Of a stretch of DNA of 64,000 bases, positions 4,667 through 49,882 are shown one piece after another; position 1 is the stretch's first letter; the number at the start of each line of letters is the position of its first letter. The stretch comes from a virus. Its lineage: Duplodnaviria > Caudoviricetes. The stretch spans positions 1 to 64,000 of IMG/VR virus record IMGVR_UViG_2840949845_000002. The stretch is one strand, 5' to 3'. The position numbers and the translations under genes were made by a program. The notes below the pieces were generated by a model. That model saw nothing but the letters and a program-made list of their open reading frames with translations. It was not told where the DNA came from and did not search any database.

Positions 4667-4668
4667 TC

Positions 4669-32439: not shown

Positions 32440-33252
32440 TTATTCGGTTTCTCGGTCGGGGCGGAAGGCCTTTTGCATCGCGATGGTGGCGTCGAGGATG
32501 CGCAGGCCGATGGTTCGGTCGATTTCTCTGGCGACCAGGGTGCGCATGGTCTTGATGACGCGCAGGTCGGAATTGGTCAGGGGGCTGGACAGCAGGGGGT
32601 TGGGGTCCAGGTCGGTGTCGATGCCGCGACGCCAGAAATCCGCCGCCTTGCACGCGGCGCAGAAAGGCGGGTTGCGGGTTTCGGGGATTGAGTTCGCGCC
32701 GATCGGCGGCGTCAGCAGCGCGCGCAGCCGGATCTGGTCGTCGCGTCCCAAGCTGCGGTAGGCCATGACCATCGATTCTTCCTCGGGCGCCAGCGTGCCG
32801 GGCAATCCGGTGGTTCTGGCGCCGGTCGCGGCGTCGAACACTTCGACCATCTGGATCGTCACCAACGCGGAGCGTTCGGTGTCCGACTTCGCCGTGATGT
32901 AGAGCGCTTGCTTTTTGGTGAGGTGGAAGGCGCCTTTGCTCGGGCGTCCACGTCGGCGGGGAAACTCCGCCGTGCGGCGGAGTTTCCGATCAGCGTCGGA
33001 AATAGGTTCATCTGGAGTGTGCGGCGCCTGCCGCGAACTGCGATTTTCCGGGACATCCCGGAAAACCTCTCCGAAGGTCATGAGCGCGGCCATGTGGCGT
33101 TCGATCAACCGACGAATATCATGAGGGTCCACCATCCCCAACGCTTCGGCAAGCCGGAGGTCGCGGATGCGCGGCTCGTGATTGATCGTGGTGTCGATGT
33201 CGGTCGGTGATAACGCGGGCAAGGCTTGCCCGTTGTCGCCCATGATGTTCAT
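32440..33252 (-). CDS. Antirepressor-like protein (copy 1)
   Basis: EPRIRDLRLAEALG...RGRPSK..HLTKKQALYI; preceded by a C4-like leader. Confidence 0.7.
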   Translation of the reverse strand: MNIMGDNGQALPALSPTDIDTTINHEPRIRDLRLAEALGMVDPHDIRRLIERHMAALMTFGEVFRDVPENRSSRQAPHTPDEPISDADRKLRRTAEFPRRRGRPSKGAFHLTKKQALYITAKSDTERSALVTIQMVEVFDAATGARTTGLPGTLAPEEESMVMAYRSLGRDDQIRLRALLTPPIGANSIPETRNPPFCAACKAADFWRRGIDTDLDPNPLLSSPLTNSDLRVIKTMRTLVAREIDRTIGLRILDATIAMQKAFRPDRETE

Positions 33253-33311
33253 GGCGATGGCCTCCTGTGCGGCATTGCCGACGGAGGGCTGCTTTCTAGG
33301 ACAACCCTGGC

Positions 33312-33386
33312 GCCGGGGGCTAGAAACCTGTCACAGGTCAGGCCGGACTATTCCCCTTGCGGGTCTTGTATTATCCGACCCCCGGC
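33312..33386 (-). ncRNA. C4 antisense RNA (copy 1)
   Basis: CCGGGGG...CCCCCGG closing stem, CCCGCAAGGG hairpin, loops CCTGTGA/GGTTTCTAG complementary to flanking targets. Confidence 0.75.
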
Positions 33387-33490
33387 AAAGGGGTATGCAC
33401 CGGACGGACTCCGGGCACGAAAATGGCCGCATCGCGAAAAACGCGCGGACGGCCTGCCGCCTGTAAGGAGGTTTCTAAGCTCCGGGGCGA

Positions 33491-33519
33491 AGAATGGCTC
33501 CGCTGGGCGGCAGGGTCAA
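33491..33519 (-). promoter_or_regulatory. sigma70-type promoter of the C4/antirepressor operon 1
   Basis: TTGACC-17bp-CATTCT. Confidence 0.5.
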
Positions 33520-33762
33520 GGGCGTCCCGTCAACGCGGCGTGGACTCGCGTGTATTTCTGTGAAAGAACGCAACCAATCTTTCCGGTCCTTGCACCTGGG
33601 CCAGTCGGACCGACGCGGCGAGTCAGCGCTGCGCCGGCTGGGCAACTGTCGCCCTCTGATACGGTCGCGCAACGCGGAGAAGGGGCCACCGGCGGCCGGA
33701 AAGACCATCGTTCGCGTGGCGATGGGGTGATCGCGACACCCCGCCGCGATTGCGCGCCCGGC

Positions 33763-34533
33763 TCATGCCCCCAGCGAGGCGTTGTGCAGGGCGATGACGT
33801 GACGAACGATGTCGGCGGCGGCGGGATCATGGGGCACCACCACCAGCAGCGTCAGCGCCGTGCCGGTTCCCCAATCGACCAGGATGGCCCCCGGATCGCT
33901 GGCGGCGTTGGACCAGGGGCGGTTGATCGCCGCCTGGACGCCAACCGGCTTGGGCGGCTCCACGCTGGGCGGCGGCGGCGACTCGGCGTCGATGAGCGGC
34001 GGCGGCAGGGCGGGACCGTCCGCGTTCGGCCAGATCGCGGCGCCGGTTGGCCGCTGGGGCGGCGGTTCGGCCCCGGAAAACAGATCGGCCGGACGCGGCC
34101 CGGCAGCCGGTTCAGGCTTGGGCGCCTTGAACGCCTCCACCTCCGCGCGGGTCACGTCGGGGCGGATCACGCCCTGCGCGACCGCCTCCTCGCGCACCTC
34201 CTCAGGCAGGGTGGCTATGACGTAGAGCGTGCTGTAGGCCTCCGGCAACTGGTCCAGCGGCACCTTCCCCGCATCGACGAATTCCGCCACCTCGCGCAGC
34301 TTGCGCGCGGTGGACGGGCCGAACGGCAGGTCGGCCTGCACCATCGCCTCATACTCGCCGTGGGGCAGAGCGGCTTTCGCCTCGTTCAGCCGTCGGCCCA
34401 CCTGCACGGTGGATTCCAGGGCGTTGGTCCATTCGCGGCGGATGTCGGCCACGAACTCCGCGCGGCTGGTCAGCGCGCGCGGCGCGTTCAGCATCGAAAG
34501 CCGGGTGTTCCCCAAACGGCGGGCGTTGGTCAT
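33763..34533 (-). CDS. DUF3102-like domain protein
   Basis: VGRRLNEAKAALPHGEY...STLYVIATLP. Confidence 0.7.
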   Translation of the reverse strand: MTNARRLGNTRLSMLNAPRALTSRAEFVADIRREWTNALESTVQVGRRLNEAKAALPHGEYEAMVQADLPFGPSTARKLREVAEFVDAGKVPLDQLPEAYSTLYVIATLPEEVREEAVAQGVIRPDVTRAEVEAFKAPKPEPAAGPRPADLFSGAEPPPQRPTGAAIWPNADGPALPPPLIDAESPPPPSVEPPKPVGVQAAINRPWSNAASDPGAILVDWGTGTALTLLVVVPHDPAAADIVRHVIALHNASLGA

Positions 34534-34534
34534 G

Positions 34535-35155
34535 TCAGATCCCCATCTCTTCGGCCAAATAGGCCCACAGGTCGCGGAACAAGGGGCCGGTGCGGGTTCC
34601 GGCGATCTCCGCCGTTCCCAGCCCGGCGGTGAAGCTGCGCGGCACCTCCTGAAGCTGGGGGATCATGACCGGGGCCAGAGTCCCCATCCTCCCCACGATC
34701 TCCCGCGCGTCCACGGTCTCGCGCAGGCGCGGCTGGATCTGGCTCAACAGCAACCGAATCGGGCGACGCCGGGCGCGCAGATAGGGGAGCATCGCGTCCA
34801 TGCTGACCAGATCCTCCGGGCCGGGGCGCACGGGGGCCAGCACCAGATCGGCGGAGTCGAACAGGATCGCCGTCGGGCCGGGGAAGACCTCAATCGCCGT
34901 CGGCGTGTCGATCACCAGCAGATCCAGCCCGTCGGGCGTCGGGGCGCGGTCGATCGCCGACAACAATCGGTGTTCATGCGCGATCACCACCGCGTCGCCG
35001 GGCCGCTGGCCATGCCAGAAGGTCAGCGACCCTTGCGGATCCGTGTCCAGAGTTCCCACCCGCAGCCCTGCCACCGCCGCCGCCACCGCCAGATTCCGCG
35101 CCGTCGCCGTTTTCGGCCCGCCGCCCTTGCCCTGAACCACCAGGATGGTTTTCAT
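34535..35155 (-). CDS. parA: ParA family ATPase
   Basis: KGGGPKT deviant Walker A, LDTDPQGSL, LVIDTP. Confidence 0.85.
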   Translation of the reverse strand: MKTILVVQGKGGGPKTATARNLAVAAAVAGLRVGTLDTDPQGSLTFWHGQRPGDAVVIAHEHRLLSAIDRAPTPDGLDLLVIDTPTAIEVFPGPTAILFDSADLVLAPVRPGPEDLVSMDAMLPYLRARRRPIRLLLSQIQPRLRETVDAREIVGRMGTLAPVMIPQLQEVPRSFTAGLGTAEIAGTRTGPLFRDLWAYLAEEMGI

Positions 35156-35279: not shown

Positions 35280-36065
35280 TCAGTGGGACGTGAAGTGCGG
35301 AGCGCCCGCGCGCCATTGCGTGGTCTTGACCGACAGGATTTCGCCGATCTGGTCGCGCACATCCGCCTTGCCGGTGACGTCCCACAATTCCGCCATCACC
35401 CGGTTGATCTCGACCATCAACTCCGTCGCCCGTTCCAACGCGATCTGGACGTCCACCGGCAGAGCCAGAAAGCCGGGCGCCCAGGTCGGCGGGGAGAGTC
35501 TCGACCGGATTTGCGGCCGCGCCGTCAGTTGGGGACGGCGCCGCCCCCCTTGGATGACGGGTTGGATCGGCTGGCCCCGCCGCAGCGCGTCGAGGGCGGC
35601 GCCGGTCAGCGTGTTGCGGACCCGCGTTTCCTCCAGCGCGGCGGCCATGCGGGCGCGCTCGTCGATCCGATCCAGGTCGGCCTTGGTCAGCGCCGGGACG
35701 GGCGGCGGCGACGCCCGACCGCTGGTCACGGTGTCGAACACCTCGACGATCTGGATCGTGATCTCGGTCGCCCGTTCCGTCTCGGCCTTGGTCGCGATGT
35801 AGATCGCCTGTTTCTTCGTCAGCCAGAATTCGGCGGCGGGGCGCCCGCGTCCGGGATTTTTCCGCACGGTGCGGAAAATTCCGCCAAGCCGCTCCAGCGC
35901 CTCTCGGTGGCGCTCAATCAGCGGGCGGATATCAGCGGAACGCTTGAAACCCAGCGCTTCGGCCAAGCGCAGATCCAGAATGCGCGGCTCGCCGTTGATG
36001 GTGGTGTCGATGTCGGACTGTGATAATCCGGGCAAAGCTTGCCCGTTGTCGCCCATGCTGTTCAT
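35280..36065 (-). CDS. Antirepressor-like protein (copy 2, paralog of 32440-33252)
   Basis: Near-identical N-terminus MN.MGDNGQALP.LS..DIDTTIN.EPRI.DLRLAEALG. Confidence 0.7.
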   Translation of the reverse strand: MNSMGDNGQALPGLSQSDIDTTINGEPRILDLRLAEALGFKRSADIRPLIERHREALERLGGIFRTVRKNPGRGRPAAEFWLTKKQAIYIATKAETERATEITIQIVEVFDTVTSGRASPPPVPALTKADLDRIDERARMAAALEETRVRNTLTGAALDALRRGQPIQPVIQGGRRRPQLTARPQIRSRLSPPTWAPGFLALPVDVQIALERATELMVEINRVMAELWDVTGKADVRDQIGEILSVKTTQWRAGAPHFTSH

Positions 36066-36124
36066 GGCGATAGCCCCCTTGTCGGCATTGCCGGCGGAGG
36101 GCCGCTTGTCACGACGACCCTGGC

Positions 36125-36199
36125 GCCGGGGGCTGACAACCTGACAAGGACAGGCCGGACTATTTCCCTTGCGGGTGTTGCATTCATCCGTCCCCCGGC
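36125..36199 (-). ncRNA. C4 antisense RNA (copy 2)
   Basis: Same fold as copy 1; loops CCTTGTCA/GGTTGTCAG match their own flanking targets. Confidence 0.75.
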
Positions 36200-36430
36200 A
36201 TAGGGGCATGCGCCGGACAGAATCCGGGCATGAAAATAGCCGCATCGCGAAAAAACGCGCGGGCGGCTTGCCGCCTTGTCATGGAGTTGTCAGGCTCCGG
36301 GGGGAAGAGTCGCTCCGTTGGGTGGGCCGCGTCAAGGGGCGCAGTGTTGCATTTTCCGCGAACGGTGCGCGGAAATTCCGGCAAACCGTTCCAAATCTCC
36401 TGCTGCAGTATTTACACGAGAAAAGCGCTT

Positions 36431-38656
36431 TCAAAGACGAACAGGAATATCAATAACCGGCGCAAGTTGCTCAAGTGTAGTTCTGTAACGGCGCACCACC
36501 TGATCGTAGATGTCTGGCACTCGTGGAGCTTTTACAGTTACGATAAGTGCATACCTCAGCTTTTCGGCGGGCCTAAAATCTTGTCCGCCTGCTCGAGCGT
36601 TATAGTGGATATCAAAAACAGGATCTTTCAAGCTCTTTCCTCGGAATGACTGGGTATGATGCAAACAGTTATCCCACTTGTGTGCGTCGCGACGTAGTTC
36701 ATCCTCAGTGGCATAGAGCTTGCCCTGCTTAAAGAAGCTTGTTGTTTTAGGGTGTATGGATTCCCCATCAATCTTATCTTTATTTGGTCGGAATAATACC
36801 TCAAGTCCTGCTCTTGTATAGTTGCTTGGGTGATGTGGATCTACAGTGGATGCGTAGCAAATCGTTGCTGATATCTCAACCATTCCACTTAATTGATCGG
36901 CTGGGACAGGAATTTGAGCTCTGATGTATTTGGATGCGCTTATTTCACCCTGGTAAACAACCCGAACCACGCCGGGAGCGCACACAACAATTTCCTCAAG
37001 ATCCCGAGCTACGCGTCCCCAGCCAACTTCCGTACGTGGATAGCCGCTCGGGGTGCTCGTATGAACAAGCAGTGCATTGATCGCCAACCCTCGGAGAGAA
37101 TCGCCAAAGTGAGCCCTGATGCCCATCCCCATGCGCATTGTGTCTGGAGCGGCAAAGCTTGTCCCACCGGTCGGCATGAGTGTTGGGACTGAGCCAGGCC
37201 CCAGCACCAGATAGGGCTCGGCTATAGAACCACCGAAGCTGACGAGCGAGGGCTTGACTCGACCAGGGCTTCTTCCTGGACCTATTGAACTGTAGGGTGC
37301 CCTTTTCCATGCAGAACTGCGAGAATCAGCAGCGCCAATTGATAATGCATTGACACAATCAGCTGGAACTTGAATGCGGTTGTAACCGTTATCCGCGTCG
37401 CGCTCTCCTCCATTTCCTACCGCGATAGTCGCCAGGGTTTCACCATCTGATAGGTATTCATCAAGAACTGCTGTCCACGCGTGGATCTCATCATCCTCGA
37501 CTGGCAACTCTGGGCCGATACTAAAGTTGATAAAATCATAACGCTTACTTGCGAGTGCATCTTGAATACGCTGCAATGTTTCATAAAGCTCCAACGGATT
37601 TTGGTTCAGATCTCCGTCAAGAACTCTGTAGTGATCAACTCGTGCATACGGAAGGGGTAAAGGAAGTCCAGGCGTAATATGGCCGAAAAGAGCTGCCGAT
37701 GTCACATTAAGCCCGTGCTCAAGATAGTCGTCTTCAGCTGGACCAATGCCACTCGGTTCGATAGCTGTTGCCCAAGCAGAAACTGGATGATCATGAGGCA
37801 GTCCACCATCAAAGATGGCCGCCTTGATAGAAGGATCAATAGGCGGTCCTTTGGGCAATGCAATTGACGGCGTAGATGGGATTGACGACGAACGGAAAGG
37901 TGGTCGTAACAGCCGAAGCTTTGGCATTTCTCTAACCGCCCGAACAAAGCTATAGGCTGCTAGATATTCTGCTTGCTTGCGAGAAGCGCTGACAGGGACA
38001 AAGCTCACGCCCGACGATGTGATTCTATGATCAAGGTCTGGCTTAAATCCTAACCCGTGAACGTAATCAACAAAACCCTCTAGGACGAAAGAATCGACCA
38101 TTGATCCGCCACCATGCAGGGCCACTTCAAAGACAATTTCTTCCGATTCCGATGTAATACTCTTCAGTTTTTCGGCAGGTTCTGGTGCCGACAACTGTTC
38201 GATGGCGGTTAGTTCGTCAGCTCCCGACGATCCAGCCCACCAATCCGGGATTGACGTCGACCAGTCACGAAACGCTCGTCGAGATCCCGCGACGAAGAGC
38301 TCCGTCGTAAGAGCTTCCTCCGGTTCCCGGCCCTTGCTGCGCGCTGCTGGGAGTATTCTACGAGGACGACTTCCAACGGCTCGAAGGCCGACCGCTGTCA
38401 AGAGCTTGCCGGGAAAATAAGATTTCGCAATGTATTCTGGATGCAAGGTCATCCGCATAACAGCATGATCATGCGGACAAGCTTTCTCTGGTAGCGCATC
38501 AAGGCTCCTAACCGCTGCCGATAACATTGGCGTAAGGCGCGACTGCGCTTGAAAGAACGTGTATGGGGCCTGTTTATCAGGATTTCCTGTGCGAACGATT
38601 ACTGGCTCCGTTAATCGCTCACCCTTGCCCAGCAGAAAGTTTCTCTTGTTCGACAT
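36431..38656 (-). CDS. S8 family serine peptidase, IetS-like
   Basis: DGG, HG, GNGG, GTSFAAP catalytic motifs; AT-rich; directly downstream of an AAA ATPase. Confidence 0.88.
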   Translation of the reverse strand: MSNKRNFLLGKGERLTEPVIVRTGNPDKQAPYTFFQAQSRLTPMLSAAVRSLDALPEKACPHDHAVMRMTLHPEYIAKSYFPGKLLTAVGLRAVGSRPRRILPAARSKGREPEEALTTELFVAGSRRAFRDWSTSIPDWWAGSSGADELTAIEQLSAPEPAEKLKSITSESEEIVFEVALHGGGSMVDSFVLEGFVDYVHGLGFKPDLDHRITSSGVSFVPVSASRKQAEYLAAYSFVRAVREMPKLRLLRPPFRSSSIPSTPSIALPKGPPIDPSIKAAIFDGGLPHDHPVSAWATAIEPSGIGPAEDDYLEHGLNVTSAALFGHITPGLPLPLPYARVDHYRVLDGDLNQNPLELYETLQRIQDALASKRYDFINFSIGPELPVEDDEIHAWTAVLDEYLSDGETLATIAVGNGGERDADNGYNRIQVPADCVNALSIGAADSRSSAWKRAPYSSIGPGRSPGRVKPSLVSFGGSIAEPYLVLGPGSVPTLMPTGGTSFAAPDTMRMGMGIRAHFGDSLRGLAINALLVHTSTPSGYPRTEVGWGRVARDLEEIVVCAPGVVRVVYQGEISASKYIRAQIPVPADQLSGMVEISATICYASTVDPHHPSNYTRAGLEVLFRPNKDKIDGESIHPKTTSFFKQGKLYATEDELRRDAHKWDNCLHHTQSFRGKSLKDPVFDIHYNARAGGQDFRPAEKLRYALIVTVKAPRVPDIYDQVVRRYRTTLEQLAPVIDIPVRL

Positions 38657-38659
38657 GTT

Positions 38660-39778
38660 TTAATCCTCAAATTTATCATGCGTTCTGCATGCGTTCCTGA
38701 TGGTATCTCTGCTGATCCCCGTAAGCTCAGACACTTGCCGTTGTGATAAGATATCTCCAAGAACCATTTCTGAAGCAATTGCCAGTCTATTAGGTTTGTC
38801 GATTTCCATTATTCGTTCTCGGAGAATTTGTTGCAGATGAATTGATAGAGGTTGCTCACTTAGCGCTGCTGCCCTTCTGGCCGCATTTACCCGTCTCTCT
38901 ACGTCACTGAAAGACAGCCCATGGAAAACTATAGACATCGCTCGCACCCAATGATTTGACTTTTCAACGTGCTCAGTTAATAGGGCGTCGAGAAGAGCCT
39001 GAAGACCAGATATATCTGGCATCGGAAAATCAACCACAATTTCAAATCGACGCCAAACGGCAGGATCTAGCAATCCAGCATGATTTGTTGCTGCAATTAG
39101 CAAACCTGTTGGCGGCCAGTCATCAATTTCTTGAAGAAGAACAGTTACAAGACGCTTTAGCTCTCCAATTTCACTTCCATCATCCCGTCTTTTTGCAATT
39201 GCATCCAGTTCATCCAAAAGAAGAACGCAATCTATTTTCTTTGCATAATCAAGAACGTTGCGGATGTTGTTCCCTGTGCGCCCCAGGTAACTACTCATTA
39301 CAGCGGCCAGATCAAGAACAAGCAGCGGCCGCCCCATTTCATGAGCAAGCCAGCGGGCTGATAGCGTTTTTCCCACACCCGGAGGGCCTGTGAAAAGCAC
39401 GGTACGTGTTGGGTTGAGCCCCACAGCGGCAAGGCGGTCGGAATTGAGACGCTCAAGCATTAATTGGCTCAATCGCTCCTTGATCTGAGGGGCAAGAACC
39501 GGCGGATGATCAATGCCTGTGACCGTCTCTACTCGGAGAAGCTCCAGTCGAGAGTCCACATCGACTGGGAGAGGTTGCTCTGCCTGCCGACGGAGAGGGG
39601 AGGACCTCGTCGGCGCCTCGCGCAACAGCGATGTTAAGCCATCCCCGAGTTCAGGAACCTGTTGCCCGTACTTCTTTGCAGCACGATGGATGAAGAGTTG
39701 CACATCCTGCTGGCGCCCTGAGAGCGCCAAGCGGGAAAGGCGGACGAAATCAGACGAAATTTCCTTTTGGAAGTCCAC
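38660..39778 (-). CDS. AAA+ ATPase, IetA-like
   Basis: GPPGVGKT, LLLDELDAI, AATNH..LDPAVWRRF; start uncertain. Confidence 0.88.
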   Translation of the reverse strand: MDFQKEISSDFVRLSRLALSGRQQDVQLFIHRAAKKYGQQVPELGDGLTSLLREAPTRSSPLRRQAEQPLPVDVDSRLELLRVETVTGIDHPPVLAPQIKERLSQLMLERLNSDRLAAVGLNPTRTVLFTGPPGVGKTLSARWLAHEMGRPLLVLDLAAVMSSYLGRTGNNIRNVLDYAKKIDCVLLLDELDAIAKRRDDGSEIGELKRLVTVLLQEIDDWPPTGLLIAATNHAGLLDPAVWRRFEIVVDFPMPDISGLQALLDALLTEHVEKSNHWVRAMSIVFHGLSFSDVERRVNAARRAAALSEQPLSIHLQQILRERIMEIDKPNRLAIASEMVLGDILSQRQVSELTGISRDTIRNACRTHDKFED

Positions 39779-39932
39779 TTCACACCGGCATATGAGGAAA
39801 ACAGGAACGAAATGAGTATGGCGGGATGGACTAAAATTCGCAACATGTTTTGGTATGTCGTCCATTTCACCGGGCGATGCCGCGCGGTGCGCGGCGGCAC
39901 GTCCAGATCCAGCCCAAGCTGCGCCGCGCCCC

Positions 39933-40184
39933 TCACGGCCCGCCCTCATCGCGCCGGTCCACCGGCGTCGTCAACCGCATCTCGCCCAGCGCCTGGGCCG
40001 CGAATCGCTTCACCTCGCTGCTGAAGGTGTAGCCGGGGGTCTGGCCGACATGGCCCGGCGGCGCGCAGGACGGGCGCAGGAAATCCCACAGCACGAACAC
40101 CCGGTCGCATCGCAAAACCCGGCGGATGCTGTCGGGGAAGCGATAGACGCCGTTTTCCCAAATATCATCAGGGCTTAGGGGCAT
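39933..40184 (-). CDS. Hypothetical phage protein
   Basis: 83-aa ORF directly downstream of the replication gene. Confidence 0.5.
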   Translation of the reverse strand: MPLSPDDIWENGVYRFPDSIRRVLRCDRVFVLWDFLRPSCAPPGHVGQTPGYTFSSEVKRFAAQALGEMRLTTPVDRRDEGGP

Positions 40185-40187: not shown

Positions 40188-40994
40188 TCAGGCCCTCGTT
40201 TCGGGGTGGGACCACAGGGAGGCTTGGCCGGACAACCGGGTTTCGACTCGAACCTCGACGTTGCGGATCCGTGGCAGCTTGGCCAAATCGTCGGAAAACC
40301 GCTGGCGAATCTGATCGGCGACGAAGCGGCTGGGGGCGGCGATGAGCAGAAGCTGGTTGCCTGTGACCGACACCCGGCAATCACGGAACCACTGGCCGTG
40401 TCGGTGGCCGCCGATCCGCTGCGCGATCAGGCCGTGCAGATCGCGCTCGGTCTCGTCGGGCTGTCCGGCGCTCACGCGCTCACGCGCAAGGGCGCGCGTG
40501 GGTTCACGGGTTATATCACAGGGTTTGGGCGACTCCGGCGTCGGGCAAAAATCCCGCGTTTTGTCGCCCAAAGCCGAAGGGTCTGTCGCCAAATCCGGGC
40601 TTTCCCCGACTCCCCGGTCGGCGACGCCGGTGTCGGCGAAAGCATCGCCCGGACCAGCGTCCAGCGCCTCCTCCCGCTCCAGCCAATCCAGGCGAAAGCG
40701 CATCCGCGTCGCCTGCCCTCGTCCGCCCGGACGATCCCGCTCGATCACGCCGCTGGCCAGCAGGGCGGCGCGCGCCCGCTCCACGTCGCGGGTGGACAAG
40801 GCCGAGTCCTGAGCCACGGTTTCGACGCTGGCCCAGGTCAGCAGATCGCCCAGGCCGCGCCACATCTCGCGGTTCACACGGCCCAGCATGACCAGGGCGA
40901 CCACCTTGTCGCGTGGCTTCAGCGCGGAACTGGAAAGCACGGCGTCACGGAAGCGGCCCACGATTTCCCGAAAGTCACAGAGTTTTGCGGTCAT
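40188..40994 (-). CDS. Replication initiator-like protein (N-terminal wHTH, C-terminal DnaA_N-like domain)
   Basis: WASVETVAQDSALSTRDVERA HTH; WF...LLIAAPSRFVADQIRQRF. Confidence 0.7.
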   Translation of the reverse strand: MTAKLCDFREIVGRFRDAVLSSSALKPRDKVVALVMLGRVNREMWRGLGDLLTWASVETVAQDSALSTRDVERARAALLASGVIERDRPGGRGQATRMRFRLDWLEREEALDAGPGDAFADTGVADRGVGESPDLATDPSALGDKTRDFCPTPESPKPCDITREPTRALARERVSAGQPDETERDLHGLIAQRIGGHRHGQWFRDCRVSVTGNQLLLIAAPSRFVADQIRQRFSDDLAKLPRIRNVEVRVETRLSGQASLWSHPETRA

Positions 40995-42245: not shown

Positions 42246-42313
42246 TTTGCGCTATAGCGCAAACTTGTCAAGCGCCATAATCACGCTACAGCGCAATCGC
42301 GTTCTAGCGCAAA
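42246..42313. promoter_or_regulatory. OR-like operator cluster
   Basis: Perfect palindrome TTTGCGCTATAGCGCAAA (42246-42263) plus degenerate copies at 42281-42297 and 42298-42313. Confidence 0.8.
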
Positions 42314-42330
42314 ATCCGCACAATGGAGAT

Positions 42331-42717
42331 ATGGCTACAATAGATGTCGAAAGAGAGCGTCGCCGTTCAGCCCTGATCCAATTTTGGGAAACGAACCGGC
42401 ACGCCTTGAAGAGTATCCGCCAATGGGCTGAAGCCTCGAAGGTGGGATACAATACTCTCAATGAATTTATCCGACGCAAGAAGGATAAAAACATGCTTGC
42501 TGACACCTACGAGAAACTTGCTCGTGGGGCCAGCATTCTTTTAAGCCGCGATGTAACAATTCATGAGTTGTTGAATGAGGAAGCTTTTGACGAAAAAAGC
42601 GAGGCAACTCAACGCATAGAGCGTATCGCGCTCCTTATTTCTCATCTTCCCGATCATGAGCAAGAAGCTTTCGAGGTTGTCCTCCAGGGGCGAGTTCAAG
42701 CCCTCGGGAAGTCTTAG
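42331..42717 (+). CDS. CI-like repressor, short, without S24 autopeptidase domain
   Basis: SIRQWAEASKVGYNTLNEF...TYEKLARG HTH; 128 aa; between OR and OL. Confidence 0.75.
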   Translation: MATIDVERERRRSALIQFWETNRHALKSIRQWAEASKVGYNTLNEFIRRKKDKNMLADTYEKLARGASILLSRDVTIHELLNEEAFDEKSEATQRIERIALLISHLPDHEQEAFEVVLQGRVQALGKS

Positions 42718-42832
42718 AAAAACGCCAAAAAGCAATTCTTTCAACTTTTTCAAGATCGGCATCAGTGAGACGTGACAGCAGCTCAATAATTTTCTTTCTT
42801 CGATTGGCCGCCCGGCTGGTCCCAGATGTCAC
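42635..42832 (-). CDS. Small ORF resembling the cI C-terminal helix (candidate antirepressor)
   Basis: GAGG RBS 8 nt before GTG; KKIIELLSRLTDADLEKVERIA; overlaps the cI 3' end convergently. Confidence 0.45.
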   Translation of the reverse strand: MTSGTSRAANRRKKIIELLSRLTDADLEKVERIAFWRFSKTSRGLELAPGGQPRKLLAHDREDEK

Positions 42833-42896
42833 TGCACTTACCTCTGCTTGCGAAATCAAATTCACCCGACCGATACGCGTCGGTCGGGTGAACAGC

Positions 42897-43337
42897 TTAT
42901 GCGGCCAATGGCTCAACCCAGAGCCAGCAGCCTTCGGGCGTAAACGGCCCTGCGTCCTTGGCGCTCACAGCCTCATCATAGGTTGGCATCTCGATTCCAG
43001 CCGCAGCAAGCGCGGCCCGCGTGTTGTCCCAGGCCGTCACGCGCTGAGGCCCTTCCGGCGGAAAGGGGTCGTGCGCAATCAAATGATCGTCACCAAAAAG
43101 CTGCTCGCTGATGCGATGCACGAAAAGATTGTCGAGAAGAAGGACATGCATGGCCTGATCCGCCGCATAGGGCAGAGCATAATAGCGGCAAGGCTGGTGC
43201 TTCTGCGCATCGCTCAAGATTGCTTTAAGGTGACGGAAGCCGGTATCCCGTAATTCCTCTGGATGATTGAAGCGCTTCACCATGGCATTTTCATGCTTTG
43301 TGAAGTCAACATCGATGACATTCTTAGCCTTTTCCAA
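42897..43337 (-). CDS. Hypothetical protein, DUF1399/GRDP-like motif
   Basis: ADQAMHVLLLD...LFG...IAHDP resembles the 'D..WH..IL....Y..FC...G..LHH.P' motif. Confidence 0.65.
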   Translation of the reverse strand: MEKAKNVIDVDFTKHENAMVKRFNHPEELRDTGFRHLKAILSDAQKHQPCRYYALPYAADQAMHVLLLDNLFVHRISEQLFGDDHLIAHDPFPPEGPQRVTAWDNTRAALAAAGIEMPTYDEAVSAKDAGPFTPEGCWLWVEPLAA

Positions 43338-43346
43338 TATGCTCTC

Positions 43347-44399
43347 CTATGATTTGCGCATCTTCGCGCGTGTTATCGCCGAAATTTTGAAGACCAACGC
43401 AGCCAAGCTGGTTAAATCTCCGGCAGCAAACTTGGTTCCTCGCAGCTTGTCTTTGATGTTCCTGATCTGCGTATAGACCGTCGCCTCGCTGGTTGACCGA
43501 CGCCGGGCGATCTCACCTGGCCCAAGCCCGGAGCCAATGAGAGCTGCGACGCGGGCTTCAGCCGGGTGCAAGCCGAGCGCTCGCTCCAGCGCAGACGCGA
43601 TCGCAGCATCGTCTTCTCCAAATCGAGAGATCACAATAATTGCTGTTCCAAGTGATTGTCCGCTGGAGATTGAAGCAAAATGAACGCCACCACTGTATGA
43701 CAGTGGCAATACTTTATAGAAGTCCTGGAGAGTGGCTGCGCTCGATACGGCGCAGTCCAATTTGGCGCAGTCATCCGGGTCTGTGGCTCTAATTCTTCCA
43801 AAATCATCGAACATCATGGATGTTTCAGATGATATCAAATCGATGAAGCTATCATTTAAATGAAATCTATTCATATTGACATCAAAAATGCCCACAGCTA
43901 AATCCAATAAATTTAATGAACAATGCATATTATTCAAAAAATCATTGACGGTTAACATTTCCTCAAAAGAATTTCCACGAATCTTTGTATTGATGTAATT
44001 CTCAACACCAGATGTCTGAATACAGACTCGCGATTGGACGCACGTCCCATCTCCGTATAGACGATGAGAAACAGACATCCTTCCAGATGGATATTCACTG
44101 ATCCAATCCAGTCCTGTGTTAAGTCTTCGCGCAATTCGGACGTTGGATATCCAATCGGCGGGATTGGCGACGGCAACCCTGTTTCCAATCAGGCCAGCTT
44201 CAAGGAGCTTCCAGAACAGCGATTCATGTGTCTCTGAGGTGTAGTCAGAGACAGGGGCAATTCGTCTTTGAGAACCGTTTGCCCAGATAATTTGGTCTGT
44301 CGGGCTATACACCAAAACCGCTCCTCCCAACGGCTGTGAGGCGCGGATAAAGAGAATTGCATCCAAATTCAAATCAGAAGGTAAGGGCAGATTGTCCAT
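43347..44399 (-). CDS. PAS-domain LuxR-type HTH transcriptional regulator
   Basis: Two PAS-like starts (VLVYSPTDQIIWAN; VGIFDVNMNRFHLN); C-terminal LHPAEARVAALIGSG...EIARRRSTSEATVYTQIRNI. Confidence 0.82.
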   Translation of the reverse strand: MDNLPLPSDLNLDAILFIRASQPLGGAVLVYSPTDQIIWANGSQRRIAPVSDYTSETHESLFWKLLEAGLIGNRVAVANPADWISNVRIARRLNTGLDWISEYPSGRMSVSHRLYGDGTCVQSRVCIQTSGVENYINTKIRGNSFEEMLTVNDFLNNMHCSLNLLDLAVGIFDVNMNRFHLNDSFIDLISSETSMMFDDFGRIRATDPDDCAKLDCAVSSAATLQDFYKVLPLSYSGGVHFASISSGQSLGTAIIVISRFGEDDAAIASALERALGLHPAEARVAALIGSGLGPGEIARRRSTSEATVYTQIRNIKDKLRGTKFAAGDLTSLAALVFKISAITRAKMRKS

Positions 44400-44541
44400 T
44401 TATCACAACCGGAACTAAGACAAATTTAATGTTACGCTACCACGTATGGAATGTGACCAGTACCAAAATTTTGGTATACGGTGTGAGAATGTCGTTTTCT
44501 GGGGCCTGGCTTTGGTTTTCCAGGCGTTATCAGGATAAAAA

Positions 44542-44591
44542 TTGCGCTATAGCGCAAACATGAGCCTTGATAAATTTGCGCTGTAGCGCGA
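44542..44591. promoter_or_regulatory. OL-like operator pair
   Basis: TTGCGCTATAGCGCAA (44542-44557) and TTTGCGCTGTAGCGCGA (44575-44591), the same motif as OR. Confidence 0.8.
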
Positions 44592-44624: not shown

Positions 44625-44960
44625 ATGGATAGGCGCGACGAGACGGATTGGCATCATTCCCCCAACGGCAGCACGCCGTCCCACCGACTCAGCCTCTTCA
44701 ACCAGCGGCGTGCGTCCATTGAGGCGCAATTCGCCATGGGCGCGATCGGCATCGCCAAGCGGCGCGATCTTCTGATCGCCGCGCGCGACGACGCTGGGAT
44801 CACGGGCATGCGGACCAACGCCAAACCGACGGTTCCGCTGGGGTTGGGAGCGAGCGAGGAGAGTGAGCGGCGGCGGCGGCGGCGGGCGGACCAACGTCGG
44901 TACGCCCGCAAGCAGGCCAGTGATGCCGTTGCGCCGATGGAGGTGGGCAACCATGGCTGA
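44625..44960 (+). CDS. Hypothetical protein, first gene of the PL-like operon
   Basis: 111-aa ORF after OL. Confidence 0.55.
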   Translation: MDRRDETDWHHSPNGSTPSHRLSLFNQRRASIEAQFAMGAIGIAKRRDLLIAARDDAGITGMRTNAKPTVPLGLGASEESERRRRRRADQRRYARKQASDAVAPMEVGNHG

Positions 44961-45657
44961 GACCGCTTCCGACCGTCAGCGCGCCGCAGCGCTGCTGCGC
45001 AAGCTGCGCGCCATCACCATAGAGGCCGGCGCCAGCGAGGCCGAGGCGATGACCGCCGCCGCCATGGCCCGTCGGCTGGTTGACCAGCATGGTCTGCCCG
45101 AGAGTGGCGAGCCAGTCATTGAGGCGCGGGTCTTCGTCGGTCGGGTGCGCACCCGTCCAATCGACAAGCTGTGGTCGGCGATTGGCCGCTTCTGTCATGT
45201 GTCGGCCATTTTTTGCCCTGAGGCGCGCGGCATAGAAATCGCCTACATCGGTCGCGCCGCCGATGTGATGCTGGCCGAGTGGCTGCACGCGGTCCTGAAG
45301 CGGCACATCGACAAAGCTCTGGCAGAATTCAAGACGCTGGCGGAATACCGCCGTCGGAAGCCAGCCCGCCGACGCGTCGCCGCGTCGGCCTTTGTCGAGG
45401 CCATGGCCCAATCCCTGCGCACCCGGCTCGACGCCATGGCCGATCAACGGATCGCCGAGCCGAAATTGGCGGAAGCCCGTCGGTGGATCGCCAACCGTTA
45501 TGGCCAGTTGGCCGACATCAAGATCGCCTCGATCTCCGACGCGCAGGTTGACGGCGCCCGGCGTCGAGGGCGGCAGGCGGCTGCCGACGTGGCGATCAGC
45601 ACGCCGGTCGCGGCACAGCCGGCGATTGCCGGCTTGATTGGAGGATCCAGAGGATGA
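44953..45657 (+). CDS. DUF2786 domain protein
   Basis: LRKLRA..IEAGASEAEAMTAAAMARRL. Confidence 0.75.
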   Translation: MAETASDRQRAAALLRKLRAITIEAGASEAEAMTAAAMARRLVDQHGLPESGEPVIEARVFVGRVRTRPIDKLWSAIGRFCHVSAIFCPEARGIEIAYIGRAADVMLAEWLHAVLKRHIDKALAEFKTLAEYRRRKPARRRVAASAFVEAMAQSLRTRLDAMADQRIAEPKLAEARRWIANRYGQLADIKIASISDAQVDGARRRGRQAAADVAISTPVAAQPAIAGLIGGSRG

Positions 45658-45899
45658 TCGCGATCAAATCCACACCTGCGACCGATTCGACGGCCATCTT
45701 CCTGGACCGGCCCCCAGAGCCTCCGGCGACGGCCTCGCCAGCGGGCGAGGAGTCCGGCCTCGCGCAATGGCACAAAGAGGACGCCGAGAAGGCCGAGCGC
45801 GCGGCCGCACAGACTCTGTTGCCCATGCTGCGTGTCCGTTTGCTCGAAACAGCCCGCATGCATCGCGACTGCGCCGAGCTGGCGCGCGAGGGGGCCTGA
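45654..45899 (+). CDS. Hypothetical protein
   Basis: ATGA-coupled ORF. Confidence 0.55.
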   Translation: MIAIKSTPATDSTAIFLDRPPEPPATASPAGEESGLAQWHKEDAEKAERAAAQTLLPMLRVRLLETARMHRDCAELAREGA

Positions 45900-45901
45900 C
45901 T

Positions 45902-46165
45902 GTGGCAGCTAAGGTTTCGGATCTCGTTGGGCTTCCAAACTGGCCACGCATGCTCAGCCGCGATCAGGCCGCACGCTATGTCGGCGTCTCGCCAGTGCAG
46001 TTCGACCGCGAGGTTTCGACGGGCCGCTGGCCAACGCCAGAGCGGCGCGGCAGCCGAGTCACATGGGATCGCCGACTGATCGACAGGGCGCAAGACAAGA
46101 ACAGCGGCATCGTGGCAAGCTCGGAGTCGTCGGCGCACGAGCCGACGGTTGATCCGTGGGCGTGA
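45902..46165 (+). CDS. Excisionase-like (AlpA/HTH_17) protein
   Basis: PRMLSRDQAARYVGVS...WDRRLID; directly upstream of the integrase. Confidence 0.8.
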   Translation: MAAKVSDLVGLPNWPRMLSRDQAARYVGVSPVQFDREVSTGRWPTPERRGSRVTWDRRLIDRAQDKNSGIVASSESSAHEPTVDPWA

Positions 46166-47352
46166 CCGTGGGCAAGATTGAGGTTGATCTACCGCGCTAC
46201 GTCATAGCCAAGCGTCGCGGCGACCGCTTGGCCTTCTATTTCCAGGTCCCGAAGCGCCTTCAGCCCGAGGGCTGGCCATCGGGCGCCATGCGGCTGAAGG
46301 ACAGCCAAGGCGTCGCCATCGAGGAGCCAGCCGAGGCCATCAGACGTGGACGCGAGCTGAACGAGATGCTGAACCGGGCGCGCGCGCAGGTGGCCGCAGG
46401 CCCGATCCAGGGCACTTTGCCGTGGCTGATTTCCGAATACCAGCACTCGGACAAGTACCGGAACCGCGCCGAACAGACGCGCTACCAGTACGACCTGATC
46501 GCGCGGATGATGATTGCGTGGTCAAAGGAGAAGAACCACCCGCAAGTCGGGCAGATGACGGTCCCGTCGGCTTTGAAGTTCCTCGACCAGTTCGAGGACC
46601 GACCGACCTACCGGATTCGTGCCGCCGCCTTCGGATCGGTCCTCTGGAATTTCGGTCGCCGACTGGGTGTGGTGTCCGTCAACGTGTGGAAGGACCTCGA
46701 CCTGGAGGCGCCGGATCCGGATGTCCATATCTGGTCCGACGAGGAGATCGCCGCCGTCGTCGCCAAGGCCGACGAGATGGCCCGCGCCAGCGTCGGCACC
46801 GCCGTGATGCTGGCCTCCGAATCCGGCCAACGGCAAGCCGACGTCCTCGACATGCGCCGTGGCCGGGAATGGGACGGCGTCACCCTCCGCCGCGTCCAGA
46901 ACAAGACCAAGGCGTATGTGACGGTGCCGGCAACCAAGCTCCTCCTTGATCGGCTCGCCAGCCTCTCGAAGGACAACCTCCTCCTCGTGGCCTCCGAAAC
47001 GACCCGGCGGCAGTGGCGCCAGCAGACATTCAGCCGGACCTTCCGCGAGATCGCTGACGCCGCTGGCTTCCCCCAGATCGAATTCCGGTCCCTGCGGGCC
47101 ACCTGCGTGTGCCGCCTCGCGTCGGCCGGGTGCTCGATTCCGGAAATAGCCAGCATCACCGGCCACACGCTGGTGTCCGTGCATCACATCCTGAAGCACT
47201 ATTGGCGACCCGACAGCGACCAAGCCAGGAATGCGATTTCCAAGGTCGAAGCGTTCCGGCTGTACCCAGTCACTTGGACTTGGAGAGAGGTGGGATTGGG
47301 TGGGATCTGCGGGGATGTCGTGGGACGCGTTGAAAATCGGGCGTTTTCCTGA
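46162..47352 (+). CDS. int: Phage integrase (tyrosine recombinase); C-terminal ~30 aa probably derived from the inserted Mu-like end
   Basis: GQRQAD, QNKT, SLRAT, TGH, KHY motifs; sequence changes character after 47260. Confidence 0.9.
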   Translation: MTVGKIEVDLPRYVIAKRRGDRLAFYFQVPKRLQPEGWPSGAMRLKDSQGVAIEEPAEAIRRGRELNEMLNRARAQVAAGPIQGTLPWLISEYQHSDKYRNRAEQTRYQYDLIARMMIAWSKEKNHPQVGQMTVPSALKFLDQFEDRPTYRIRAAAFGSVLWNFGRRLGVVSVNVWKDLDLEAPDPDVHIWSDEEIAAVVAKADEMARASVGTAVMLASESGQRQADVLDMRRGREWDGVTLRRVQNKTKAYVTVPATKLLLDRLASLSKDNLLLVASETTRRQWRQQTFSRTFREIADAAGFPQIEFRSLRATCVCRLASAGCSIPEIASITGHTLVSVHHILKHYWRPDSDQARNAISKVEAFRLYPVTWTWREVGLGGICGDVVGRVENRAFS

Positions 47353-47996: not shown

Positions 47997-48545
47997 TCAA
48001 GCCCGGCGTTTGCTCGATGCGGGATCGGCGGCGGCGGCGCGGAGTTCCTGGCGAAGGGCGGCGGTGACTTCGCCGACCTCGGTCAAGCGGTCGTCGGGAT
48101 CGGTCACTGTGGCGACGATCCGATCATGCTCCTTCGCCGCCCGCTCCGTTGCTTGATGGATGGCTATCGAGACGCCCATCTCCTTGTAGATCAACAAAAT
48201 CTTCTCGGTTAGCCGCCCCATCAACCGGGCGTCAGTTGCGGGCGCAAACGTCTCGGCTGTGGCGGTCGGCGCAGTTGACGCAGCAGCGGCGTCGCCGGGC
48301 CGCATCGAGCCGTTTCCGGTCGCCAACCAGTCGAGTGAGATGCCGCAGACCTGAGCGGCAGCGACTATTCCGGACCAGCCAGGGTCGGACGCACCAGACA
48401 GCCACTTTTTTACACCAGACAGGGAGGCACCCGTCGCCTTCGCCAACTCCTCCTGCGTCAAACGCCCCTTCATAGCCAGTCGGAGGCGGTCGCCGAAAGC
48501 TTTCCGGTTCGAGCCAAGATCCGTAAAGCGATGATCGTTATCCAT
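47997..48545 (-). CDS. XRE-family repressor (Mu c-like)
   Basis: FGDRLR...TQEELAKATGAS...SLDWLATG; divergent from ner. Confidence 0.85.
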   Translation of the reverse strand: MDNDHRFTDLGSNRKAFGDRLRLAMKGRLTQEELAKATGASLSGVKKWLSGASDPGWSGIVAAAQVCGISLDWLATGNGSMRPGDAAAASTAPTATAETFAPATDARLMGRLTEKILLIYKEMGVSIAIHQATERAAKEHDRIVATVTDPDDRLTEVGEVTAALRQELRAAAADPASSKRRA

Positions 48546-48740
48546 TGGTCACTTTACGGTTCTATAGAGACTTGATTTCACAGGGAAATTTACAAGGCGT
48601 GCCGTCTTCACGCCAAAAAGAACCGTAAAGTGATCTTTTGGCTTGCCATGGTTCCTTATAGTGCCCATAATTTCCCCGTTAGTCCAAAACGCACCACGAA
48701 ATGACCGGCCTGGCGGGGCCGGTTTGACAGGGGGAGAGGC

Positions 48741-49037
48741 ATGGCGCGCACCGCCGACATGGTTCCGGCTGAAATCCGGTTCCGACTGAACAGCAAGGGC
48801 CTGACCTTCGCCGACGTCGATCGGGCCTATGGCCTGAAGGACGGCACGGCGCGCAAGGCGGCACGGCAACCGCACATCGATGGCGAACTCGCCATCGCGG
48901 AGATGCTGTCGTGCTCGCCGCGCGAGCTTTGGCCCTCGCGGTTCGGCGTCGGCGGCAAACGCCTGAAGCCTCAACCCGTGAAAAACTATACGGACCCGCC
49001 GCGCCTTTCGCACCGTCAAAAGCAGAGAGCCGCGTGA
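48741..49037 (+). CDS. ner: Ner-like DNA-binding protein
   Basis: GELAIAEML...ELWPSRF. Confidence 0.88.
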   Translation: MARTADMVPAEIRFRLNSKGLTFADVDRAYGLKDGTARKAARQPHIDGELAIAEMLSCSPRELWPSRFGVGGKRLKPQPVKNYTDPPRLSHRQKQRAA

Positions 49038-49039
49038 AC

Positions 49040-49882
49040 ATGAAAACCTCTGGCATGAAATCCCTCGGGTTGCAGGACATCCCGATTTCCGACATCGACA
49101 TCAGCTTCCGGCTGCGCCCCGTCGATGACGGCTACGCCACGCTGTTGGCGGAGAACATCCAGGAGGCCGGGCGCCTGCGGCAGCCGGTCGAGGTGCGGAC
49201 GGTGAAGGGCGGCGGGTTCCGCCTGATCGCTGGCGCCCATCGGTTGGCCGCCTGCACCAAGCTGGATTGGCCCACCATCCCCGCCTTCGTGTTCGAGGCG
49301 ACCGAGGACGAAGCCCGGTTGGCCGAAATCGACGAGAACCTTGTCCGGCATGAGTTGAACCCGCTGGACCGCGCGACCTTCCTGTTCGAGCGCAAGAGCA
49401 TCTACGAGCGGCTGAACCCGGAGACGAAGAACGGCGCGCAAGGCGGCGTCGGCGGCAAGCGGAATGAGAACGAAACGATTTCGTTCTCAAAGGACACCGC
49501 CGCGCGCATCGGCCTGACCGACCGCACCATCCAGTTGGCGGTGAAGATCGCCACCGGCCTTGCCCCAGACGTCAAGGTGTCGGTCGCCGGAACCGCCATC
49601 GCCAAGACGCAGGCCGAACTGCTGGCGCTCGCCAAGCTGGGGCCAGCCGAACAGCGGGCGGTGTTGGGGATGTTGCTGGGGGACGAACCCAAGGCGAAGT
49701 CGGTGCGCGAGGCCATGGCGGCGCTGACGAACCGTCCGGCCAAGGTGGCGGACGGCTACGCCAAGTTGTTGACCGCGTGGCGCCACGCCGGGACGGGCGA
49801 GCGGCGGGCGTTCGTGGAGTTCCTGCGGAAGGACGGCGCGCTGGATCAGTTCGACGCCGATGATTCGGAGGTCGCAGCATGA
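49040..49882 (+). CDS. ParB N-terminal domain protein
   Basis: LRQPVEVR...LIAGAHRLAA...EIDENLVRHEL. Confidence 0.85.
   Translation: MKTSGMKSLGLQDIPISDIDISFRLRPVDDGYATLLAENIQEAGRLRQPVEVRTVKGGGFRLIAGAHRLAACTKLDWPTIPAFVFEATEDEARLAEIDENLVRHELNPLDRATFLFERKSIYERLNPETKNGAQGGVGGKRNENETISFSKDTAARIGLTDRTIQLAVKIATGLAPDVKVSVAGTAIAKTQAELLALAKLGPAEQRAVLGMLLGDEPKAKSVREAMAALTNRPAKVADGYAKLLTAWRHAGTGERRAFVEFLRKDGALDQFDADDSEVAA

Follow-up and report, generated by a model that had tools for sequence, protein, structure and literature searches.

The 64,000-nucleotide stretch of DNA analysed here, which we refer to as the window, corresponds to G000:C1:2158654-2222653 of a 6.46-Mb genome, and it contains a 2.3-kb segment that is the immunity region of a tailed prophage in an Azospirillum-like host. 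Between its right and left operators (OR and OL) lie a gene for a 128-residue repressor with an XRE-like helix-turn-helix (HTH) and a helical tail, a small open reading frame (ORF) that converges on the repressor gene and overlaps its 3' end by 83 nt, a gene for a 146-residue protein and a gene for a 350-residue regulator of predicted PAS-PAS-LuxR type (Table 1). An earlier prediction made from the sequence alone (hereafter the original prediction) had described the arrangement as OR, repressor gene, slot and OL, which the operators and the gene order bear out, and had treated the last three genes as a single AT-rich operon. The segment is indeed AT-rich (G+C content of 0.36-0.57 over 43.1-44.6 kb, against 0.63-0.72 in the flanks) and the three genes are co-directional and convergent on the repressor gene; they appear to be two units and not one operon, a terminator-like hairpin lying between the gene for the 146-residue protein and the small ORF.

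The comparison loci, identified below by L numbers, come from relatives in a single bacterial family, and they cannot be counted as independent of one another. One of them, L025, is a syntenic related prophage in which the products of the replication gene, the cro-like gene and the repressor gene are 70%, 67% and 63% identical to those of the window, the corresponding figures being 55% for the 146-residue protein, 39% for the 350-residue protein, 46% for orf111 and 49% for the DUF2786 protein.

Table 1. Features of the immunity region and of the surrounding prophage, with positions in the window.
Feature	Position	Strand	Basis or remark
cro-like HTH gene, 95 aa	41950-42237	-	ORF; first gene of the leftward early operon (PR)
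OR, three operator copies	42247-42312	.	pattern search
repressor gene, 128 aa	42331-42717	+	ORF between the operators
small ORF, 65 aa from GTG at 42832	42635-42832	-	frame open up to 42916
terminator-like hairpin	42860-42893	-	14 pairs, then TTGATTTCGC; -25.9 kcal/mol
146-aa gene	42897-43337	-	TTG start behind AGGAGA; C-terminus -LAA
350-aa PAS-PAS-LuxR type gene	43347-44399	-	ORF; family profiles
LuxR-type palindrome	44460-44477	.	perfect core TACCAAAATTTTGGTA at 44461-44476
OL, two operator copies	44542-44591	.	pattern search
rightward early operon (orf111, DUF2786/DUF7168 protein, excisionase-like ORF, integrase)	44625-47352	+	Pfam and PHROG matches
integrase gene	46156-47352	+	Pfam, PHROG
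tail-fibre gene	3308-4672	-	left of the immunity region
baseplate-hub gene	9514-10986	-	left of the immunity region
tape-measure gene	10983-12725	-	left of the immunity region
large-terminase gene	21455-23560	-	left of the immunity region
Rha-family gene	35280-36245	-	left of the immunity region
IetS/IetA anti-phage pair (S8 peptidase and AAA ATPase)	36431-39949	-	PADLOC: IetA E=2.5e-82, IetS E=5.4e-39
replication-initiator gene	40188-40994	-	Pfam, PHROG

The repressor family and its operators

The exact palindrome TTGCGCTATAGCGCAA occurs at 42247-42262 and at 44542-44557, in keeping with the expectation that OR and OL share one operator, the position first given for OR (42246) being one base off. 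Degenerate copies are found at 42281-42296 and 42297-42312 (three mismatches each) and at 44576-44591 (two mismatches), the pattern being TTGCGC-N4-GCGCAA and the OL copies lying 34 bp apart. At up to three mismatches the window holds five copies against 0.23 expected, a number that none of 100 shuffles reached, and at up to two mismatches the whole 6.46-Mb genome adds a sole extra match, on contig C4. By our own reading, the first OR copy appears to occupy the 17-nt spacer between a minus-strand TTGACA and the -10 region of PR, and the second OL copy the 17-nt spacer that follows a TTGATA ahead of the rightward genes; operator copies placed in both spacers would block both early promoters.

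It can be seen from the related loci that this operator design recurs. In L025 the TTGCGC and GCGCAA half-sites are kept at the same five places and the central four bases vary, and in L043-L048 there are 6-N4-6 palindromes of the same build with half-sites specific to each locus. A second pair of sites, spaced 34-35 bp apart and again with the locus's own half-sites, is present beyond the repressor gene in L025, L044, L046 and L048. In the last three it lies 1.2-6.1 kb past the repressor gene, and we therefore regard the design of OR, repressor gene, slot and OL as a property of the family. The slot holds the LuxR gene and its partner in the window and L025, a Crp-family regulator with two 425-aa genes in L044, membrane or secreted proteins in L046 and a lipoprotein-like gene in L048. 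The repressor and cro homologues of L043-L048 are again divergent, and indeed the cro-like gene was divergent from the repressor gene in all compared loci. The cro-like protein of the window, which matched no family in Pfam or PHROG, is 34-53% identical to its counterparts in L044-L048.

The claim that the 128-residue repressor lacks the RecA-cleavable S24 domain held up, since Pfam gave no Peptidase_S24 match at E<=0.1; no nameable match was found in Pfam, PHROG or NCBIfam, and nothing among PDB sequences beyond a weak match to the Aca11 HTH (E=0.69). Its look-alikes by language model (Atlas) are HTH_3 proteins of 120-150 aa with scores of 0.92-0.95, which we took as a lead only. Relatives of the repressor are encoded in 9 of 130 genomes of the order, and in a large protein collection the family makes up 20 clusters, of which all the named ones are from Azospirillum and are annotated as hypothetical or XRE proteins. 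A single-sequence search of genome and viral contigs returned no further repressor loci. When a four-row alignment was used, two places with repressors matching known loci were returned along with three metagenome loci, one of which shares the L043 repressor, the two others (L052/L053) being identical.

One family member, L044 (G000:C2:86500-103000), is a second switch of this type in the same genome as the window. Its half-sites are TCGCGC...GCGCGA, its OL-type pair lies at 1881/1916 of the locus and its slot spans 6.1 kb, with the Crp-family regulator gene divergent from the small ORF. The presence in one host of a switch with different half-sites would fit prophages that are induced separately (Silpe et al. 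2023; PMC10432266).

A small ORF that resembles the tail of its own repressor

Small ORF start codons were chosen by us; in the window a GAGG lies 8 nt ahead of the GTG, and 6-7 of 8 loci have an SD-like (Shine-Dalgarno) motif suitably spaced ahead of a start codon that could be used. An opposite-strand ORF was present at the 3' end of the repressor gene in 8/8 loci, and it overlaps the repressor gene in the same phase in 7/8 loci of the genus and order set (7/9 distinct loci). These counterparts occur with or without the LuxR gene and its partner. The original prediction had made the small ORF part of the cassette with those two genes; it travels with the repressor instead, and on its distribution it would belong to the repressor and not to the LuxR pair.

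We compared all six frames in the 230 nt past the repressor stop codon with the last 50 aa of the repressor, and the frame most like the repressor was the small ORF's own in 7/8 loci. When all eight loci were scored, own pairs (the diagonal) had a mean of 39.5 against 25.5 (pairing p=1e-4). For a more conservative test L043 was dropped and the codons that overlap the repressor gene were removed; in the seven loci that were left, the mean score was 33.9 when each small ORF was paired with its own repressor and 24.3 when it was paired with a foreign one, and the observed mean was reached by 13 of 5040 pairings. Shuffle p-values in this test were 0.001 (window), 0.012, 0.007, 0.007, 0.25, 0.077 and 0, which is below 0.02 in 5/7 loci. 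The third codon positions of the aligned parts are 29% identical and the likeness is therefore not that of a DNA or RNA hairpin; the higher identity at first and second positions follows from the choice of alignment and proves nothing more. BLASTP detected the own pair of L048 directly (E=2e-4). Over the repressor family as a whole, the idea that the small ORF mimics cI thus has statistical backing. The small ORFs of the window and L025 are 32% identical, against 63% for the repressors. From these comparisons we think it very probable that the small ORF is a genuine gene, one that evolves fast and in step with its own repressor.

The small ORFs had no match among PDB sequences, the Pfam SinI model matched neither the repressor nor the small ORF at E<=0.1, and no SinR or SinI chain emerged from the PDB searches. 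An action of the small ORF on the repressor can be proposed by analogy with SinI and SinR, to which the likeness of tail and small protein corresponds. We also searched for GTTC-N7-GTTC, which we take to be the alphaproteobacterial LexA motif; there were 40 matches in the window at up to one mismatch against 49.8 expected, and none of them was near the small ORF. One exact GTTC-N7-GTTC lies at 29314-29328 in an intergenic position, the motif being unenriched across the window.

Genes for transcription factors lie beside the small ORF in 4/8 loci of the genus and order set. They are of LuxR type in the window and L025, of the Crp family in L044 (cNMP_binding, E=5e-15, with HTH_Crp_2) and of XRE/HTH_3 type in L047, the last two being divergent. 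This would fit the logic of the modules of a transcription factor and a small ORF (TF-smORF) in PMC10432266, and the small ORF of the window would also fit the non-proteolytic small antirepressors described there.

The LuxR and GRDP-like genes form a pair

A search among 1.84 billion representatives returned 118 relatives of the 350-residue protein at E<=0.001. The window's own protein matched GerE (PF00196) with E=0.01 and 15.9 bits, under the cut-off of 23.5, and had no PAS match in Pfam. Among 43 relatives, PAS_8 was matched in 19, PAS_4 in 13 and GerE in 13, and ten relatives scanned singly had PAS matches at approximately 20-55 and 159-232, two of them (P0011 and P0025) above the cut-off. 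When the family profile was compared with PDB, GerE-type HTH chains aligned at 278-342 (E=1.2e-8), which upholds the earlier assignment of a LuxR part, and PAS chains at 116-258 (E=0.002-0.03). Evidence at the family level favours a GerE HTH and two putative PAS-like parts, and by its relatives and the family profile the 350-residue protein is predicted to be a regulator with a LuxR/GerE-type HTH.

A relation to VqmA, which had also been suggested, did not survive beyond the HTH. The VqmA chains 6ide, 6kju and 6ugl match the profile at positions 274-338 (HTH) only, with E=0.001, and a VqmA-type receptor (a single PAS domain with an HTH in about 240-255 aa, with full-length similarity) was rejected on this HTH-only match, the length of 350 aa and the two putative PAS-like parts. 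At L015 7539-10094 two LuxR homologues stand in tandem with no gene for the 146-residue protein after them, and the first is apparently without its HTH end.

The 146-residue protein is encoded at 15 places in 12 of 69 genomes of the genus. It had been called DUF1399-like, and this was borne out at the level of profile homology; the protein itself gave no Pfam match at E<=0.1. One of 22 aligned relatives, that of L021, matched GRDP-like PF07173 (E=2.3e-6), and a profile of 17 relatives aligned with the L021 GRDP-like protein over 102 columns in hhalign (probability 87.7%, E=3.5e-6) and, using the same family profile, with that of L031 (98.6%, E=1.1e-15). We conclude from the profile comparison that the 146-residue protein is probably a divergent GRDP-like (DUF1399-related) protein. 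The motif W-H-x-H, which we take to be characteristic of GRDP-like proteins, is present in L021 and L031, and the 146-residue protein keeps the first His only. Residues D60, H64, H89, P97, T106 and C137 are invariant in the 22 relatives (alignment A5), and 19 of the 22 end in Ala-Ala (-LAA, -QAA, -AAA or -KAA), which may be likened to a ClpXP-type degron of alphaproteobacteria; the invariant residues and this C-terminus hint at a metal site and at proteolytic control. No match to the family was found among PDB sequences, Atlas look-alikes were UCP032817-like (score 0.91, a lead only), and a limited literature search gave no paper on a bacterial DUF1399 protein. In three loci a short basic ORF with the shared start MERVMR-NVP...R-RK-MRA is found just 3' of the GRDP-like gene (L019 ~1700-1800, minus strand; L021 ~9890-9998 and L022 ~9890-10000, plus strand); this ORF had no counterpart in the window.

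The two genes occur together in about 19 loci of the genus, including gp02-gp03 of Azospirillum phage Cd. A LuxR gene was directly upstream in 7/7 loci fetched through the 146-residue protein. Conversely, tblastn found a homologue of the 146-residue protein in 6/10 loci fetched through the LuxR protein, and the remaining four comprised a GRDP-like gene (L021), a shorter related ORF (L014) and two loci with no homologue (L022 and L015). A hairpin stands 3' of the pair in the window, L025, phage Cd, L014 and L021/L022; the L025 hairpin, although at the same place, is a different hairpin from that of the window. The flanks are often phage-like or mobile, L014 having genes for terminase, portal and head, L020 one for an integrase and L021 one for a phage-type polymerase, and 9 of 10 flanking proteins tested matched a PHROG family. 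From these features the pair appears to be a self-contained, terminated two-gene mobile module, separate from the small ORF.

The pair has a palindrome of its own, which in the window lies about 70 nt upstream of the LuxR start and is unique in window and genome at up to three mismatches. Palindromes with an AAATTT-type core and locus-specific arms are centred between -85 and -50 in 15/19 loci, other bins containing 0-8, and shuffles gave a mean of 3.25 and a maximum of 10. The window palindrome is accordingly positioned as a candidate autoregulatory binding site and, because there is no second copy in the genome, the operon of the pair looks autoregulated, with itself as its only visible target.

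Unrelated HTH repressor genes face the pair, convergent with it, in phage Cd (gp02-gp03 against gp04), L014 and L021/L022; in the window and L025 the pair is directly upstream of the small ORF in the same direction, pointing into the small ORF and the repressor gene. A divergent EamA transporter gene accompanies the pair in ten loci and is gp01 in phage Cd. At four loci of this EamA type (L016, L027, L028 and L029) the pair is followed by a shorter LuxR-type HTH gene (188-214 aa) and another conserved small gene, and the module can therefore exceed two genes.

Prophage setting and defence genes

Six proteins of the immunity region had no PHROG match, the small ORF having been queried as the enclosing 93-aa open frame. 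Metatranscriptome contigs from two biofilm runs, 95-99% identical to the window, reach a depth of 2-6 over the repressor and 146-aa genes, the small-ORF region and parts of the LuxR gene; they are strandless and may be DNA, and we drew nothing from them.

The IetS/IetA pair listed in Table 1 lies in low-G+C DNA within the early-left operon of the prophage. A second integrase-family gene is found inside the prophage at 26964-27965 on the minus strand (PHROG 1, E=2e-25), and beside it at 29893-34632 on the plus strand is a block of 49-52% G+C with two large ORFs, of 781 and 468 aa, for which no Pfam or PADLOC family was matched. The second integrase gene and this block are possibly an island inserted in the prophage. 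Directly after the prophage integrase gene, at 47997-49882, are a cI-type repressor gene (182 aa; Phage_CI_repr, HTH_3) and a ParB-like gene, which probably represent a neighbouring element or a remnant.

Given this setting, the LuxR gene and its partner might be a Rex-like exclusion or defence system expressed from the prophage, an alternative that the original prediction had itself raised. The cassette occupies the position of lambda rexAB, other slots of the family carry membrane and lipoprotein genes of a kind typical of exclusion functions, and the same prophage carries IetAS. However, no PADLOC defence-system model matched the cassette, the sole hit being CARF3--CARF to the HTH of the 350-residue protein only (E=3.8e-4), and PADLOC returned nothing for the 146-residue protein, the repressor or the 93-aa open frame. 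The parts of the cassette are a transcription factor and a small soluble protein, with no nuclease, membrane or NTPase effector among them. We regard an exclusion system as very improbable.

A proposed switch that does not require SOS cleavage

What is demonstrated at this locus is the presence of the operators, the order of the genes, how the families are distributed, the statistics of the mimicry and the placement of the palindromes. The explanation that we prefer, tentatively, is a non-SOS switch in which a SinI-like tail mimic inactivates the repressor and the LuxR pair is one of several interchangeable inputs. The uncleavable repressor would bind the 6-N4-6 palindromes in the spacers of both divergent early promoters. 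The product of the small ORF may pair with the C-terminal helical tail of the repressor, as SinI does with SinR, and a repressor paired in this way would no longer dimerise on its operators, so that the prophage would be induced without SOS cleavage. The region between the small ORF and OL would serve as a cargo slot, its content differing among phages. In the window, the PAS-PAS-LuxR regulator would most likely activate its own operon from the cognate palindrome; a signal sensed by the PAS domains could raise transcription of the module, and transcription that leaks past the hairpin into the small ORF, and antisense into the repressor gene, could tip the switch. Of this scheme, we infer all of the binding, which way the regulation runs and that the coupling passes through the hairpin.

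Several results weigh against this switch, and the first group concerns the mimic. The frame rule is violated by L043, where the top-scoring frame has three stops and differs from the called ORF. The hhalign comparison of the small ORFs with the repressors gave weak values (E=0.022, probability 2%), the small ORF and the repressor of the window had no BLASTP match to each other, and the longer-repressor metagenome variant L052/L053 shows no mimic. One of ten looked-up forms of the small ORF is a called gene in the collection, that of L048, and the window's form is absent from it. In phage Cd the small ORF between gp03 and gp04 had a raw score of 30-31 against gp04, and there was no clear mimicry. 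The weak profile comparison, the nine of ten forms not called as genes, the exceptions L043 and L052/L053 and the fast divergence of the small ORF relative to the repressor would all be expected if the small ORF were non-functional, being either an antisense or terminator region or a decaying inverted copy of the 3' part of the repressor gene. Inactivation of the repressor would then fall to something else, for example a Rha-like protein or a host factor, and the prophage does carry a Rha-family gene (Table 1). We nevertheless think a non-functional ORF improbable, since the frame is open and in the same phase in 7/8 loci despite random third positions, SD-like motifs are present, and each small ORF is likest the tail of its own repressor, a pairing that a decaying copy would lose.

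The second group of adverse results concerns the coupling of the LuxR pair to the switch. The terminator-like hairpin between the 146-aa gene and the small ORF is strong and its position is conserved in the window and L025, which speaks for insulation between the cassette and the small ORF; no copy of the LuxR-type palindrome was found near the small ORF or OR; and in other slots of the family the cargo is non-regulatory (lipoprotein-like in L048, membrane or secreted in L046). Many copies of the pair also lie away from any repressor gene. The original prediction was to be given up if homologous cassettes were not linked to immunity regions; the linkage is seen in phage Cd, L025, L014 and L021/L022, many other copies are unlinked, and the outcome therefore goes half of the way towards refutation.

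These findings bear on the main rival explanation, that the LuxR gene and its partner are an insulated accessory 'moron' in the cargo slot with no input into lysis or lysogeny. In the lysogen the pair would keep up an autoregulated circuit of its own, perhaps a loop that signals or senses a small molecule together with host EamA-type exporters, and the small ORF would be controlled separately. Consistent with this are the hairpin that ends the pair in the window, L025, phage Cd, L014 and L021/L022, the pair's own positioned palindrome in 15/19 loci, the LuxR gene directly upstream in 7/7 loci fetched by the 146-residue protein and the divergent EamA gene in ten loci and in phage Cd; moreover the pair is found in 0/6 of the other repressor-family loci (L043-L048), unrelated cargo fills the slot elsewhere, and the low G+C content marks the pair as foreign. 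On the other hand, the pair is repeatedly convergent on repressor genes of three unrelated types, it is directly upstream of and co-directional with the small ORF in both prophages that have it, and the window palindrome is without another copy in the genome, so that no host regulon is visible. An insulated cassette is in our view a possibility, if a rather doubtful one.

The tail-mimic switch with interchangeable inputs could also be extended, and here we enter more speculative ground. The LuxR protein, the 146-residue protein and, where present, EamA might together be a new small-molecule signalling system of Azospirillum mobile elements, acting as receptor, metal-dependent signal maker and exporter, which temperate phages have wired to a tail-mimic antirepressor so that a prophage counts its own kind and decides on induction. 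This is a distinctly long shot. If true, it would be a small-molecule counterpart of arbitrium in alphaproteobacteria, and tail mimics that co-evolve with their repressors would be a general, overlooked route to heteroimmune, separately inducible prophages.

To our knowledge, induction with uncleavable repressors is understood in few phages, nearly all of them from gamma-proteobacteria and Firmicutes. In the plant-associated alphaproteobacterial genus considered here, a whole family of repressors is accompanied by a small gene, convergent and overlapping, that appears to copy the repressor tail. Dominant-negative pairing would be a concrete, testable mechanism for small antirepressors that are elsewhere featureless, and tail mimicry would explain how related prophages in one cell can be induced separately. 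The pair of LuxR and GRDP-like genes is conserved and its cognate DNA site is clear; as far as a limited literature search goes, it also includes a bacterial branch of a domain otherwise described from plant proteins alone. Should the coupling fail, the description of the cargo slot and a new regulator pair would still stand, and would be of moderate importance.

Comparison with known systems

A public counterpart of the pair itself is in phage Cd (NC_010355), in which gp02 is 36% identical to the 350-residue protein and gp03 33% identical to the 146-residue protein. As in the window, gp02 and gp03 are neighbours and converge on a gene for an HTH regulator, gp04, where the two early arms meet. 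Unlike in the window, gp04 is unrelated to the 128-residue repressor (no tblastn match) and an EamA gene, gp01, is present. The pair is thus already public in the phage Cd record, where gp02-gp03 are annotated as a response regulator and a hypothetical protein with no function; a limited literature search found no study of these genes in phage Cd or in the present region.

In the immunity region of lambda, OR is followed by the repressor gene, an accessory slot (rexAB) and OL, and the accessory genes are expressed from the prophage. The window has the same order, with its cargo convergent on the repressor gene and not co-transcribed with it; unlike in lambda, the repressor is without an S24 domain, and there is no Rex homology. 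The arbitrium genes aimR-aimP-aimX are a gene for a receptor that doubles as transcription factor, one further gene and a small gene for the output, and the window likewise has three co-directional genes near an immunity region. In contrast to arbitrium there is no sequence relation and no peptide signal gene, and a small-molecule signal would here be purely hypothetical.

In Bacillus subtilis, SinR is an XRE-type repressor with a C-terminal helical oligomerisation tail, and SinI is a small protein with the same tail that antagonises it by forming a heterodimer. Our small ORF product similarly resembles the tail of its own repressor in the conservative pairing test. It differs in that no Pfam SinI or PDB SinI match was obtained, and in that the genes are convergent and overlapping instead of tandem.

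The closest described precedents are the TF-smORF modules that Silpe et al. (2023; PMC10432266) report for Aeromonas phages and linear plasmid-like vibriophages, VqmA(Phage)-Qtip of VP882 among them. There the small protein was shown to inactivate its cognate cI without proteolysis, the phages carry differing sensory factors, LuxR-type ones included, the factor gene diverges from the small ORF, and the small ORFs resemble nothing recognisable. Like those phages, the window, L025, L044 and L047 have a factor gene beside a small ORF that lacks annotation, the site being a variable one in a temperate phage, and a host can contain more than one prophage of the family, L044 sharing the genome of the window. 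In L044 and L047 the factor is divergent, as it is there; in the window and L025 the arrangement differs, factor and small ORF being co-directional and separated by a hairpin. The host here is also alphaproteobacterial and the phage an integrated tailed prophage. Unlike VqmA, moreover, the regulator has two putative PAS-like modules and matches VqmA in the HTH only. The small ORF here is further set apart by its fixed position beside and overlapping the repressor gene and by its resemblance to that repressor's tail. These two properties, together with the pairing of a PAS-PAS-LuxR gene and a GRDP-like gene with a cognate palindrome, are what is new in the present region.

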